A stretch of 6,611 bases of DNA from a virus (IMGVR_UViG_2744054854_000002), one strand, 5' to 3'. Counted from the stretch's first letter, positions 1 through 6,611 are shown. Program-made: numbers and translations. Notes: a model not told the origin generated them from the letters alone.

Positions 1-99
1 GTGGCGGCGGCACAGTTGGTGTGGCGGCCTCAGTCCGGAACAATTTGAAAACAAGAACCTCGCTTAGGCCTGTGTCCATATTACGTGGGTAGGATCATC

Positions 100-255
100 A
101 TGCGTGAATATCCAAATGGCGAAAAAACACACCTTACTGTAATGGCCGCAGGGTTTCCATCTCTGACCGGAGATCATAAAGTCATTTATGTAGCCGCGGA
201 TCGACATGTTACTTCAGAAGAAATTCTGGAAGCAGCAATAAGGCTCTTGAGTTGA
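100..255 (+). CDS. ynfN: Small 51-aa protein, YnfN-like (Qin-type prophage small protein)
   Basis: ATG at 100-102 with AGGA at 91-94 (5-nt spacer); 51 codons to TGA at 253-255; translation MREYPNGEKTHLTVMAAGFPSLTGDHKVIYVAADRHVTSEEILEAAIRLLS. Too short for the supplied ORF track. Identity rests on memory of K-12 YnfN and on the conserved neighbourhood (gnsB, ydfO, ynfO, Nu1 homolog). Confidence 0.5.
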   Translation: MREYPNGEKTHLTVMAAGFPSLTGDHKVIYVAADRHVTSEEILEAAIRLLS

Positions 256-348
256 TTTGATGCTATTGCATTGATAATTCAGGAAAATTCTCTTTGTCTG
301 TTTGTGTAAAATTTAGACTATCGTATGTTGATTATTGCGATGTTTCAT

Positions 349-395
349 CTTATCTTTTACACGTTTGCACCATATAATCGACTTACTGTGTAACT
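349..395 (+). promoter_or_regulatory. Candidate sigma70 promoter for the gnsB-like gene
   Basis: Perfect -10 hexamer TATAAT at 373-378; weak -35 candidate TTATCT at 350-355 (17-bp spacer); TTGCAC at 365-370 is an alternative -35 for a downstream -10. AT-rich intergenic region upstream of the ATG at 427. Sequence-pattern only. Confidence 0.3.
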
Positions 396-426
396 GGAAA
401 GTCATAACAGACTAAAAGAGGAAATG

Positions 427-599
427 ATGAATATTGAAAACTTAAAAACAAAAGCAGAAGCAGATATTTCTGAATATATAACAAAAAAATTATTGAACTT
501 AAGAAAAAGACCGGGAAAGAAGTTACCAGTATTCAGTTTACCGCACGGGAAAAAATGACGGGTCTTGAAAGCTATGATGTCAAGATTAATTTAATCTGA
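427..599 (+). pseudogene. gnsB: GnsB/GnsA-family gene with a frameshift in an A7 homopolymer
   Basis: ATG at 427 with SD-like AGAGGA at 417-422. Frame A reads MNIENLKTKAEADISEYITKK then runs to TGA at 556-558. The other frame, from the A-run at 483-489 onward, reads IIELKKKTGKEVTSIQFTAREKMTGLESYDVKINLI and ends at TGA 597-599. Together they give 57 residues colinear with GnsB as I recall it (MNIEELKKQAETEIADFIAQKIAELNKNTGKEVSEIRFTAREKMTGLESYDVKIKIM). Span is 173 nt; 174 (A8) would restore one frame. Confidence 0.6.
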
Positions 600-626
600 T
601 GTATTCAATAATAAAATTTATCCATA

Positions 627-657
627 AACCTCGTTTTTACGGGGTTTTGTTATATTT
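627..657 (+). terminator. Candidate rho-independent terminator downstream of the gnsB-like gene
   Basis: Stem AACCUCG (627-633) pairs with CGGGGUU (640-646) including one G-U pair; 6-nt loop UUUUUA; followed by UUUUGUUAUAUUU. Orientation-specific: the reverse strand is followed by an A-rich tract. Confidence 0.35.
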
Positions 658-713
658 GAATGGTTCCGAATATCTAAATCACAATTGTTGATGGTTTTTA
701 TTAAACCAATGCA

Positions 714-742
714 GTCCGGCTCAGGAGTGAGAGAAGCCGGAC
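714..742 (-). terminator. Possible weak terminator hairpin after the ydfO-like gene
   Basis: Perfect 8-bp inverted repeat GTCCGGCT (714-721) / AGCCGGAC (735-742) with a 13-nt loop, just 3' of the minus-strand stop at 751-753. No clean U-tract follows on the minus strand, so weak. Confidence 0.2.
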
Positions 743-750
743 GTTATGGT

Positions 751-1161
751 TTAGCGTGGTAAGATCTGTGTAGTTTTCTGGATGCTTTCAGTAAATAGTA
801 ATAAATTATCAAAGGTATAGTAATATCTTTTTTGTTCGTGGATATTTGTAACCCACCGAAAAACTCCTGCTTTAGCAAGGTTTCTTCTGTATTCCTGAAA
901 TGTGATCTCTCTGGATTTCAGCTTATTAGAGGTCGTTTCTATAAGATGCCTATCCTTTGAAAATTTGACAGACACAATGTTTTTTAGGCCCTTTAATAAC
1001 ACTGTATTATCATTTTTTAATACAATATGAACATTCTCTGTGGCTAAATAGTAAATGTAATGTGAGACATTGTGACGTTTTAGCTCAGAATAAAACCATT
1101 GATAGTTTAAATCGTTTCGAACTTTATCAAATATTTGTTTAAAAATGACTACCTGATCCAT
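751..1161 (-). CDS. ydfO: DUF1398-family prophage protein (YdfO/YbcV-like, often labelled putative envelope protein), 136 aa from the second ATG
   Basis: Track ORF 751..1176 (141 aa). The first ATG is preceded by C-rich sequence with no SD. The second ATG (1159-1161) has GGAAGG with a 7-nt spacer, giving [18 protein letters not shown]... Family assignment is from memory of K-12 YdfO/YbcV and from gene order. Confidence 0.7.
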
Positions 1162-1218
1162 AGATAAACCTTCCATGTGATATGAGGGGGCGTAGTCTGC
1201 ACGATTATCTAAATTTCT

Positions 1219-1452
1219 TCAATCTGGTCTGACCTGTTTTCTGAGCAATTCAGTAATGTCACTCTTTTCTTTGTTTGCTTCAGAAGAAACTCTTTTTTCT
1301 GAGCACAGTCTCCGGCGGCAGGCTTCAATGACCCAGGCTGAGAAATTCCCGGACCCTTTTTGCTCAAGAGCGATGTTAATTTGTTCAATCATTTGGTTAG
1401 GAAAGCGGATGTTGCGGGTTGTTGTTCTGCGGGTTCTGTTCTTCGTTGACAT
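1219..1452 (-). CDS. ynfO: 77-aa ribbon-helix-helix-like small protein (YnfO-like), immediately upstream of the ydfO-like gene on the same strand
   Basis: Track ORF 1219..1452. Basic N-terminus MSTKNRTRRTTTRNIRFP followed by NQMIEQINIALEQKG and SGNFSAWVIEACRRRL, matching the beta-strand/helix/G-turn/helix pattern of Arc/MetJ/CopG folds (visual inspection only). 42-bp gap to the ydfO start. No strong SD. Confidence 0.55.
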   Translation of the reverse strand: MSTKNRTRRTTTRNIRFPNQMIEQINIALEQKGSGNFSAWVIEACRRRLCSEKRVSSEANKEKSDITELLRKQVRPD

Positions 1453-1640
1453 GAGGTTGTCCCGTATTCAGTGTCGCTGATTTGTATTGTCTGAAGTTGT
1501 TTTTACGTTAAGTTGATGCAGATCAATTAATACGATATCTGCGTCATAATTGATTATTTGACGTGGTTTGATTGCGTAGATGCACGTTGTGACATGCAGA
1601 TGATAATTATTATCATTTTGCGGGTCCTTTCCGGCGATCC

Positions 1641-1674
1641 GACAGGTTACGGGGCGGCGACCTCGCGGGTTTTC
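1641..1674. other. cosN: lambda-type cohesive-end nicking site
   Basis: CGACAGGTTACG (lambda right-end terminus) abuts GGGCGGCGACCT (lambda left-end 12-nt cohesive end, 1652-1663) then CGCGGGTTTTCGCTATTTATGAAAA. Flanking 1453-1650 is colinear with the lambda right end as I recall it, with scattered substitutions; this includes the cosQ region. Confidence 0.85.
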
Positions 1675-1694
1675 GCTATTTATGAAAATTTTCC

Positions 1695-1820
1695 GGTTTA
1701 AGGCATTTCCGTTCTTCTTCGTCGTAACTTAATGTTTTTATTTAAAATACCCCCTGAAAAGAAAGGAAACGACAGGTGCTGAAAACGAGCTTTTGGGCCT
1801 CTGTCGTTTCCTTTCTCTGT
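1695..1820 (+). other. cosB: terminase small-subunit binding region (R3, A/T-rich IHF-type bend region, R2, R1)
   Basis: R-element-like motifs CATTTCCGTTCTTCTTC (1704-1720, R3), GAAAGGAAACGACAG (1761-1775, R2, inverted) and CTGTCGTTTCCTTTC (1801-1815, R1). R2 and R1 are a perfect 15-bp inverted repeat separated by 25 bp. A/T-rich stretch 1725-1750 lies between R3 and R2. Position between cosN and Nu1 matches lambda. Confidence 0.75.
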
Positions 1821-1840
1821 TTTTGGCCGTGGAATGAACA

Positions 1841-2360
1841 ATGGAAGTCAACAAAAAGCAGCTGGCTGACATTTTCGGTGCGAGTATCCGTACCATTCAG
1901 AACTGGCAGGAACAGGGAATGCCCGTTCTGCGAGGCGGTGGCAAGGGTAATGAGGTGCTTTATGACTCTGCCGCCGTTATAAGATGGTATGCCGAAAGGG
2001 ATGCTGAAATTGAGAACGAAAAGCTGCGCCGGGAAGTTGAAGAACTGCGGCAGGCCAGCGAGACAGATCTCCAGCCAGGGACTATTGAGTACGAACGCCA
2101 TCGACTTACGCGTGCGCAGGCCGACGCACAGGAGCTGAAAAATGCCAGAGACTCCGCTGAAGTGGTGGAAACCGCATTCTGTACTTTCGTGCTGTCGCGG
2201 ATCGCAGGTGAAATTGCCAGTATTCTCGACGGGATCCCCCTGTCGGTGCAGCGGCGTTTTCCGGAACTGGAAAACCGACATGTTGATTTCCTGAAACGGG
2301 ATATCATCAAAGCCATGAACAAAGCAGCCGCGCTGGATGAACTGATACCGGGGTTGCTGA

Positions 2361-2386
<26 letters not shown>
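1841..2386 (+). CDS. nu1: Terminase small subunit gpNu1 (181 aa)
   Basis: Track ORF 1841..2386; MEVNKKQLADIFGASIRTIQNWQEQGMPV... matches the N-terminal winged-HTH of lambda Nu1 as recalled. Near-identical to lambda along its length; 26-nt overlap with A as in lambda. Confidence 0.95.
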
Positions 2387-5118
<2,732 letters not shown>

Positions 5119-5284
5119 CGCCACGACGGCATCCACGAAGGCGACAGAGGCAGCTGGCAGTGCGACGGCAGCAGCTCAGAGCAAAAGTACGGCGGAATCT
5201 GCAGCAACGCGCGCTGAGACAGCGGCAAAACGGGCAGAGGATATTGCATCCGCCGTGGCGCTTGAGGATGCGAGCACGACGAAA

Positions 5285-5497
5285 AAGGGGATAGTACAGC
5301 TCAGCAGTGCGACCAACAGCACTTCCGAGTCACTGGCGGCAACGCCAAAAGCCGTTAAGGCCGCGTATGACCTGGCTAACGGGAAATACACCGCACAGGA
5401 TGCAACGACAGCACAGAAAGGGATAATCCAGCTAAGCAGCGCGACCAACAGCACGTCTGAAACGCTGGCGGCAACGCCAAAGGCAGTAAAAGCAGCC
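5285..5497 (+). repeat. Tandem in-frame duplication of the conserved tail-fiber motif (two ~81-bp copies, 132-bp period) inside stf
   Basis: Copy 1 at 5285-5365 encodes [27 protein letters not shown]; copy 2 at 5417-5497 encodes [27 protein letters not shown]. Nucleotide copies are similar but not identical. Lambda Stf, as I recall it, has one copy. Confidence 0.8.
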
Positions 5498-6611
5498 AAT
5501 GACAATGCTGAGAAACGTCTGCAGAAAGATCAGAACGGTGCGGATATCCCTGGCAAAGACACCTTTACGAAAAATATTGGTGCCTGCCGTGCCTTCGGTG
5601 GGTCAGTAAGCACAACAACAGGAAACTGGACGACTGCACAGTTTATCGAGTGGCTGGATTCTCAGGGAGCATTTAACCATCCATACTGGATGTGCAAGGG
5701 TTCCTGGTCTTATGGCAATAATAAAATCATTACTGATACTGGCTGCGGTAATATTCATCTCGCCGGAGCTGTCATTGAAGTAATGGGGATAAAGTCAGCG
5801 ATGACGATCCGCATTACCACACCGACCACCTCCACTGGTGGTGGAACAACTAACGCCCAGTTTACCTATATTAATCACGGAACAGATTATTCACCTGGCT
5901 GGCGAAGGGACTATAACTCCAGAAATAAGCCAACGGCATCAGAGATCGGGGCGTTACCGTCAGGTGGAACAGCAGTATCATCAGTTAATCTGTCTTCAAA
6001 AGGTCGGGTAACCGCGCTGACAGACAATACGCAGGGGGCAACAGGTCTTGAGTTATACGAGGTGTATAACAACGGATATCCAACAGCGTATGGAAATATC
6101 ATTCACCTGAAAGGGATGACAGCCGTTGGCGAAGGTGAGTTACTCATCGGCTGGAGTGGTACAAGCGGTGCTCATGCTCCGGCATTTATTCGTTCACGAC
6201 GGGATACGACCGACGCAAACTGGTCGCCGTGGGCGCAGCTTTACACCTCGGCTCATCCTCCTGCAGAGTTTTATCCAGTCGGTGCACCAATCCCGTGGCC
6301 ATCAGATACCGTTCCGTCTGGTTATGCCCTGATGCAGGGGCAGACTTTTGACAAATCTGCTTACCCGAAACTTGCAGCCGCTTATCCGTCAGGCGTGATC
6401 CCTGATATGCGTGGCTGGACGATTAAGGGCAAGCCCGCCAGTGATCGAGCCGTATTGTCTCAGGAACAGGACGGCATTAAATCACACACCCACAGCGCCA
6501 GCGTATCCAGTACGGATTTGGGGACGAAAACCACATCGTCGTTTGATTACGGCACTAAATCCACGAATAACACTGGTGCGCATACCCATAGTGTTAGCGG
6601 TACGGCTGCTT

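Follow-up and report, generated by a model that had tools for sequence, protein, structure and literature searches.

In E. coli, microhomology-mediated illegitimate recombination, or alternative end joining, is known from the lambda Spi- and lambda-bio assays and from RecBCD- and LigA-dependent end joining. The Spi- assay has been treated in two papers (PMC3375238, PMC11372144). Among the prophages of this species, Qin is integrated in ydfJ, and its size ranges from 11 to 97 kb among 189 strains (PMC6379469). A described state of Qin is the nohA-stfQ junction of K-12 (b1548/b1547), where the deletion of head and tail genes has left a C-terminal stf fragment together with tfaQ and pinQ. Our study describes another state of the same prophage, at the same ydfJ site and with the same flanking genes, in which 17.4 kb were very probably lost from the late-gene end in a single step, this being the best explanation of the junction, and in which the breakpoint in the portal gene is one that is reused elsewhere. 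The junction itself is an ordinary one, already annotated as a pseudogene junction, and constitutes a new allele of a known type of decay.

The stretch of DNA analysed here, which we call the window, has 6,611 nucleotides (IMGVR_UViG_2744054854_000002) and is the late-gene end of the Qin cryptic prophage at ydfJ in E. coli. The initial annotation had described it as resembling the K-12 Qin arrangement; the likeness holds, but the locus is Qin itself, at ydfJ and with the K-12 gene order on both sides. In the complete genome NZ_AP021894, the Qin that contains this sequence carries flxA, relBE, hokD, rem, ydfU, the lysis cassette, cspI, gnsB, ydfO, ynfO and nohA on the upstream side, and tfaQ, pinQ, ydfK, ynfT and an N-terminally truncated ydfJ on the downstream side, in the order of MG1655. 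By comparison of this annotation with MG1655, the prophage is integrated at the 5' end of ydfJ, which is truncated and lies outside the window, and its marker genes (relBE to nohA, then tfaQ and pinQ) stand in K-12 order. The lineage that carries this type of Qin includes strain 2018-10-1CC, and the junction region is 100% identical in the two complete-genome records of that strain (2018-10-1CC and TBU0218_10-1CC); from the 2018-10-1CC record the window differs at four positions, all of them upstream of 1820. The same junction is found in at least five assemblies (AP021894/AP027716, GCA_045610745.1, GCA_023244395.1, GCA_052417675.1), from which the window shows 2-10 aligned differences each. 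It is confined to one lineage, in 2 of 20,395 records.

Some further marks of this lineage were observed. The first 97 nucleotides of the window belong to the right end of an IS3 copy by which ynfN is interrupted (whole element, L001 14005-15197), and this insertion is present in all assemblies with the window junction whose upstream flank is included (in L015 it is not visible). A second IS3 and one IS1 lie elsewhere in the same Qin. Besides, tfaQ is frameshifted in the AP021894 annotation (L001 22014-22560) and is an intact ORF of 191 aa in L009, L014 and L015, of the same lineage; either an error of sequencing or a mutation of very recent date could explain the frameshift.

The features of the window are the following:

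1-97, end of an IS3 element, then the small Qin genes ynfN', gnsB, ydfO and ynfO (from the ORF list and the sequence)
1652-1663, plus strand, cosN cohesive-end sequence GGGCGGCGACCT, an exact match to the lambda left end
1841-2386, plus strand, nohA (Nu1 homologue, terminase small subunit), full-length ORF of 181 aa
2361-4286, plus strand, A (terminase large subunit), full length, 641 aa, the same length as lambda A
4283-4489, plus strand, W (head-tail joining protein), full length, 68 aa, matching PF02831 positions 1-66 of 66
4486-5118, plus strand, B' (portal stub), 210 aa, ending in ...YYVSEDG with TAG at 5116-5118
5100-5117, plus strand, portal-side sequence CGTCAGCGAGGACGGCTA, which ends at the recurrent breakpoint and which intact genes continue with TCCTGG
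5116-5117, no strand assigned, crossover TA, a dinucleotide found in both parents and the sole perfect microhomology (alignment of parents and junction)
5117-6611, plus strand, 'stf (side-tail-fibre gene from codon 410 on), out of frame with B' and running off the window end

From the cos site to the junction the window is lambda-like: positions 1652-5117 align with lambda 1-3467 at 98.2% identity. The product of nohA, which bears this name in NZ_AP021894, covers PF07471 completely (positions 1-164 of 164, E = 2e-101), and that of A matches the GpA_ATPase and GpA_nuclease domains of Pfam over their full profiles. By contrast with a whole lambda-family portal protein, which would match all of PF05136 and have about 533 aa, B' matches only positions 2-171 of 354 of this profile; it is part of such a protein, its gene is the same as intact ones up to nt 632, and RefSeq lists it as an incomplete portal pseudogene. 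On the other side of the junction, 'stf keeps the Phage_fiber_2 repeats and the Collar domain of Pfam and lacks the N-terminal phage_tail_N domain for tail attachment; its frame is open from an ATG at 5072 to the window end. The two Phage_fiber_2 units correspond to an 87-nt direct repeat in stf (5285-5371 and 5417-5503, 80% identical).

Two additional reading frames touch the junction. An antisense ORF of 218 aa on the minus strand (4480-5136) starts just past the junction and covers the portal stub nearly exactly; we found no sign of gene status, and the G+C richness of the coding strand probably accounts for it. RefSeq also lists a "hypothetical protein" of 66 aa (WP_349626566.1) that spans the junction in the third frame (window 5094-5294; L001 20195-20395) and looks like an annotation artefact made by the deletion.

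At base level, portal homology extends to 5117, and positions 4286-5117 are 100% identical to many intact portal genes, while 5119-6611 are 100% identical to the stf gene of ATCC 8739 Qin. With a caret marking the join, the portal parent reads ...GAGGACGGCTA^TCCTGG, the stf parent ...GCGAAGGGTA^GCGCCACG and the window ...GAGGACGGCTA^GCGCCACG. C5115 is thus specific to the portal and G5118 to stf, and TA (5116-5117) is common to both parents. The TAG at 5116-5118 was created by the junction, since its G comes from stf; comparison with the parents in this way bears out what the initial annotation had suspected of this codon, and also its reading of a portal gene that is lambda-like to codon 210 and then joined to the middle of stf, which resumes at codon 410 of 1007. 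The stf codon phase (5117+3k) is +1 relative to B. Around the crossover the parents match at four of five positions (GGCTA and GGGTA), TA alone being perfect. A longer microhomology of 15-18 nt was suggested by the overlap of the BLAST alignments, in which the portal match runs to 5117 and the stf match is extended back through mismatches to 5100; in the base alignment, this overlap comes down to 13 scattered matches of 18, with TA as the only perfect stretch. C5115 was likewise considered as a mutation made at the junction and was ruled out, as many intact portal alleles read GGCTAT.

Two Qin copies with the full head and tail module at the same integration site, those of ATCC 8739 and TUM9868, permit the lost DNA to be measured. 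Their module comprises B, C, D, E, FI, FII, Z, U, V, G, T, H, M, L, K, I, J, lom, stf and tfaQ, with the whole 17.4 kb from B to stf in place and, in ATCC 8739, a frameshift in Z only. Relative to TUM9868 the window lacks 17,410 bp (L007 20833-38242), and relative to ATCC 8739 it lacks 17,472 bp (L004 2547-20018). The lambda equivalent is 3468-20562, or 17,095 bp: as had been predicted, the alignment with lambda breaks at 5117 and resumes inside stf. What was lost is B from codon 211 to 533, C/nu3, D, E, FI, FII, Z, U, V, G, T, H, M, L, K, I, J, lom and stf codons 1-409, in agreement with the gene list and the figure of roughly 17 kb that had been estimated from the lambda map. With no capsid or tail genes left, the locus would be unable to form particles, as the initial annotation also held.

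Both flanks are collinear with the undeleted reference and nothing is inserted between them. Window 96-5117 is 99.86% identical to TUM9868 (L007 15810-20832), and 5100-6611 is about 99.6% identical (99.67% by megablast) to L007 38225-39736; as a whole, the flanks are 99.7-100% identical to the intact Qin copies. TUM9868 further shares the accessory-gene variant of the window's lineage, with a lipocalin and a short Q-family antiterminator. Judged from these flanks, the backbone of the event is a TUM9868/ATCC 8739-like Qin. The identity of the flanks to those of intact relatives (portal GGCTAT alleles 100% up to 5117, ATCC 8739 stf 100%) points to a recent deletion; no further damage is seen in them, nohA, A and W being of full length. 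The segment with cos, nohA, A and W (1652-4489) is intact though every capsid gene is lost. In this sense, the remnant leaves the chromosome with what the sequence predicts to be a whole terminase and a cos site open to cleavage, which could affect packaging by a helper phage or terminase-induced breaks.

As to how the join arose, a DNA end formed within the portal gene (...GACGGCT(A) on the top strand) would have been joined to a stf site 17.4 kb downstream. Few bases are shared, namely TA, and there is no long repeat. No IS sequence is present at 5100-5130, the nearest being the IS3 end at 1-97, so that an IS-mediated adjacent deletion finds no footing here, and no crossover of the Pin/Gin/Hin type (AAACC-NN-GGTTT) is visible by eye in the portal or in the partner sites. 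Microhomology-mediated illegitimate recombination, by end joining or by template switching, is suggested as the pathway because only TA is shared and because there is no insert, no IS end and no recombinase-type site. The outcome would be a 210-aa portal stub closed by the junction TAG, followed by the out-of-frame C-terminal 60% of stf, tfaQ and pinQ. To our knowledge, none of the consensus sequences for the Pin invertase, IS ends, the lambda Int core, gyrase or type IA topoisomerase would fit the break position convincingly. The nick motif of MOBP relaxases, which we take to be YATCCTG^Y, has a counterpart in TATCCTG^G, 5 nt downstream of the break, and this is no convincing fit either.

The K-12 deletion, like that of the window, has a 2-nt TA microhomology at its junction. 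It joins window position 2369 to 6009, so that segments 96-2369 and 6009-6606 are contiguous in K-12; its left end is 9 nt inside A, at the 3' end of nohA, its right end lies in stf, 891 nt beyond that of the window deletion, and it amounts to about 21.0 kb. K-12 Qin is without A, W and B', whereas the window keeps them, which confirms that the two end points differ, as had been noted from the window alone. At most 375 of 5,426 complete genomes carry the K-12 deletion, whereas the window type belongs to one lineage. The flanks of K-12 are 99.3% identical to the window at 96-2369 (15 mismatches in 2275 nt) and 97.2% at 6009-6606 (17 in 598 nt). Since the K-12 deletion encloses that of the window on both sides, their order is not decidable by structure alone. 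The window deletion is probably independent of that of K-12, because the K-12 backbone has diverged more than the intact Qin copies have (99.3% and 97.2%, against 99.7-100%). In the initial annotation the window had been taken for an independent or intermediate state of decay; the first of these is favoured, with flanks nearer to intact Qin than to K-12.

A third state is found in the Qin of pig isolates (CP062895 and relatives), where the portal gene is truncated at the same nucleotide but the partner is J and not stf: six pig-isolate genomes match the portal stub through 5118 and then continue into a J fragment. One of them (L006, CP062895) has three deletions, at positions 8857-8862, 9830 and 11228-11260. 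The first runs from nohA to the end of A via a 6-nt GCTGGC microhomology, the second is the portal-J deletion at the recurrent site and the third joins lom to stf; the three make up a stepwise decay series on a K-12-like backbone.

The recurrence of this breakpoint in many unrelated deletions was not foreseen in the initial annotation. The same portal position, GGNT(A)^TCC, is joined within 4 nt to ten partner sites in lambdoid prophages: stf twice, J three times, lom, D, FI, FII and the 3' part of the portal gene. The junction types are listed below, where the caret is the join and the deleted side of the partner's parent is written before it:

T1, stf codon 410, parent GGGTA^GCGCC, shared TA, the window's lineage
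T2, J (368-aa remnant), GGATA^GCCGCC, shared TA, pig-isolate Qin
T3, J (773-aa ORF), GGACA^ACGGC, shared A, a Bor-carrying lambdoid prophage
T4, stf (267-aa remnant), GCAGAT^GAAGG, shared T, GGG portal allele with the break 1 nt earlier
T5, lom in frame (353-aa portal-Lom chimera), CGTTAT^GAG, shared TAT, 47 index blocks
T6, portal nt 1258-1260 (626-bp internal deletion), GGCCATC^G, shared ATC, L022-L024
T7, FII, GGGTA^CATGG, shared TA, L025 (GGC allele)
T7, GGG allele, five IMG/VR contigs, up to CGGGTA (6 nt) shared
T8, FI, parent not recovered, L026, portal allele 79% identical
T9, J tip, parent not recovered, L027, portal allele 76% identical, break 3 nt later (TATCC^)
T10, D, CCTCCA^CCCGT, shared A, L274 (IMG/VR)

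Every partner is on the downstream side, at a distance of 0.6 to about 18 kb, and a left-hand DNA end at portal nt 631-635 would suit all ten junctions. Among the nine other types, those with a known parent share 1-3 nt, the exception being the FII junction in the GGG allele with up to 6 nt (CGGGTA); this junction and that of the GGC allele, both counted as T7, may be one event. The portal alleles of T8 and T9 have a nucleotide identity of no more than about 76-79%. The portal-Lom chimera (L019-L021, for example OZ040064.1 1994673-2003734) belongs to a separate lambdoid prophage, with several complete genomes among its 47 index blocks, and joins portal residues 1-211 to the C-terminal 142 of Lom through TAT. 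These junctions resemble the known products of illegitimate recombination in their 1-3 nt of homology, in their deletions of 0.6-18 kb and in having neither a recombinase site nor a mobile element. However, illegitimate recombination usually scatters both end points, and here one of them is fixed within 4 nt over ten events and three allele classes.

The survey behind this list was seeded from the junction of the window. The exact 210-aa stub was present in 97 index blocks with four different DNA junctions, by an exact-protein look-up that finds only junctions making a stop codon right after codon 210. We also searched with the stub protein and mapped the end of portal homology in all 82 hits, setting aside contig-end partials and frameshift read-throughs. 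This gave six distinct products at codons 210-212, for which the partners in the underlying DNA are lom, the portal 3' part, FII, FI and J, and about 19 truncations or fusions elsewhere in the portal, at 19 codons (118 to 278) with one junction each. Six of 25 in one three-codon bin corresponds to a Bonferroni-corrected binomial P of about 3e-4, with a background density that is approximate owing to the length filter and the 90% clusters of this search. In a pre-specified test, IMG/VR was scanned for 29 exact portal bases up to the site followed by any base but the portal's T; all six hits were junctions, of two types (partners FII and D). The control consisted of six single positions only (portal nt 350, 470, 570, 675, 725 and 850), and its 27 hits were all alleles in which the portal continues, with no junction among them. 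Matches of a 19-nt degenerate pattern in genome and metagenome contigs were chance matches in unrelated taxa only, the pattern being too short. An insensitive search with portal residues 211-420 revealed no junction in which the right side of the site is retained; it returned ORFs that begin at an internal Met, and of the two examined one is due to a nonsense mutation (L029) and the other to the start of a contig (L030). The open-access papers searched describe the breakpoint nowhere, which is weak evidence.

Several kinds of apparent break were discarded. The 90% cluster members of the 210-aa stub are mostly partial genes at contig ends, and contig ends at codons 196-210 were ruled out as breaks, as they follow allelic SNPs. 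Two such contigs (L017 and L018, one of 472 kb) end at locus position 6629, right after ...GAGGACGG and a single base short of the third position of codon 210, which is polymorphic. These ends are probably a branch of the assembly graph between co-resident portal copies, and the point is a frequent contig break. Frameshifts of 1 nt at portal nt 467-471 and 634-638 coincide exactly with the two CCWGG (Dcm) sites (P0026/L028, P0066, P0082); they are probably methylation-related basecalling errors of long-read assemblies and not real variants, and L028 is rich in errors, with many broken genes.

Since at least nine other deletions with different right-hand partners reuse the position, a DNA end or nick may form preferentially at GGNTA^TCC(T/A)GG and would then join a downstream site offering 1-3 nt of homology. 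We lean, although only slightly, to the view that lambda-family portal genes hold a one-sided hot spot of deletion, exact to the nucleotide, at codons 210-212, GGNT(A)^TCC(T/A)GG, from which a recurrent nick, break or replication stop would lead to arbitrary downstream sites. Among local features, a pseudo-cosN cut by terminase was discarded, as the best matches to cosN cores of 12, 20, 22 and 32 nt on both strands of intact Qin do not include the portal site. A hairpin or cruciform was also discarded (DNA fold z = -1.0), the only inverted repeat being the 5-bp GGATA/TATCC with a 19-nt spacer. No Chi, Dam or EcoKI site lies at or near the portal breakpoint. The sole local feature noted is a Dcm site, CCTGG, which begins 2 nt past the break (portal nt 634). 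An activity of the host at this adjoining site, or a nuclease borne by a phage or plasmid, could be the agent.

Other origins of the window junction have to be weighed against a single-step loss. E. coli genomes carry several copies of portal and stf sequences, and some draft contigs stop exactly here (L017, L018), as might be expected if the assembly had joined fragments of two lambdoid prophages; but the identical junction and flanks stand in two complete-genome records and in at least three further independent assemblies, the parents share 2 nt only, far less than any assembler k-mer, and the chromosomal context is unbroken on both sides out to ydfJ. These concordant assemblies indicate that a misassembly can be ruled out for practical purposes. 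A nested series is always formally possible for one-sided deletions, and an origin in two steps would begin with a portal-J deletion as in pig-strain Qin (GGCTA^GCCGCC), followed by a second one from that junction to stf via a 4-nt TAGC; both the B'-'J junction and the stf parent read ..TAGC.., so that exactly the window sequence would result. However, the B'-'J junction is known on a different, K-12-like Qin backbone with a stf allele 89-95% identical, whereas the window flanks match the intact Qin of TUM9868 and ATCC 8739. The second event would also have to begin exactly at the old junction, so the same site preference is still needed, and junctions in GGC, GGG and GGT portal alleles cannot make one chain; we regard this origin as decidedly improbable. 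Even less can be said for the window being the direct precursor from which K-12 Qin arose by later trimming at either side. The K-12 deletion (window 2370-6008 plus 17.4 kb) does fully contain that of the window, and both show TA microhomology, but the mismatches of the K-12 flanks (15/2275 and 17/598) against the 99.7-100% identity of intact Qin copies, a Q/cold-shock region that differs between the window's Qin and that of K-12, and the confinement of the window-type junction to one lineage (2/20,395 records) make such a descent scarcely probable. A single-step loss from an intact Qin is the reading we retain.

With regard to the hot spot, an outward search from one junction may find that junction's position again by its design: the look-up behind the first four types depends on a stop codon directly after codon 210, and the protein search favours targets near the 210-aa length of its query. 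Nevertheless, fusions ending elsewhere than at codon 210 (Lom, FII, internal portal, FI and J tip) break here too, the same search recovered truncations at codons 118-204 with one junction each, and the IMG/VR scan gave six junctions in six hits at the site against none in 27 at the six control positions, so that an artefact of ascertainment seems improbable. Selection instead of mutation would hold that a stub of about 210 aa is favoured, for example as a dominant-negative product against superinfecting lambdoid phages, or that other lengths are harmful. Stub arrangements are in fact unusually widespread (97 index blocks, and 47 for portal-Lom) compared with the 1-3 contigs of most truncations; but a choice at protein level has no means of placing a break to within 4 nt, the products are of several kinds (some stop at once, one has an out-of-frame tail of 63 aa, others are in-frame fusions to Lom and FII) and truncations at many other codons also persist, which makes this account highly improbable. 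A specific nick or cut beside the break is another possibility, and its top candidate is the processing of the Dcm site by Vsr (C^CTGG) or by an EcoRII-type enzyme (^CCTGG), which would leave a top-strand 3' end at ..CTAT(C) to be trimmed by 0-3 nt and then joined. The CCTGG lies 2 nt from the break, and Dcm sites are sparse enough (about 1 per 615 bp) for such adjacency to be unlikely by chance. The left extents of all ten junctions (nt 631-635) fit an end at nt 633-634 trimmed by 0-3 nt, T9 doing so only if its unrecovered J parent gives one or two C's. On the other hand, the idea is post hoc, picked after several others had failed, and suggestive only; the portal's other surveyed Dcm site (codon 156) is without a junction cluster, and the right-hand partners are not at Dcm sites. 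We hold this cut to be possible but doubtful. A one-sided hot spot in the portal gene, whatever its agent, is the reading to which we incline.

The junction of the window offers a cleanly resolved and dated case of what is very probably a single-step loss, which can be compared with the intact Qin and with the larger deletion of K-12. For practical work, draft assemblies tend to break at this point, and tools that assess prophage completeness will meet the 210-aa stub in many unrelated contexts. If the hot spot is real, it would be a natural, sequence-defined substrate for studies of illegitimate recombination in vivo. It would also constitute a major route for the loss of head and tail genes in lambdoid prophages that keep cos, terminase and W, and would account for the common modules of cos, terminase, W and portal stub. 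Indeed, if deletions start at a defined position of the portal gene, the domestication of prophages would be channelled in part by a site-specific lesion and not by random loss.
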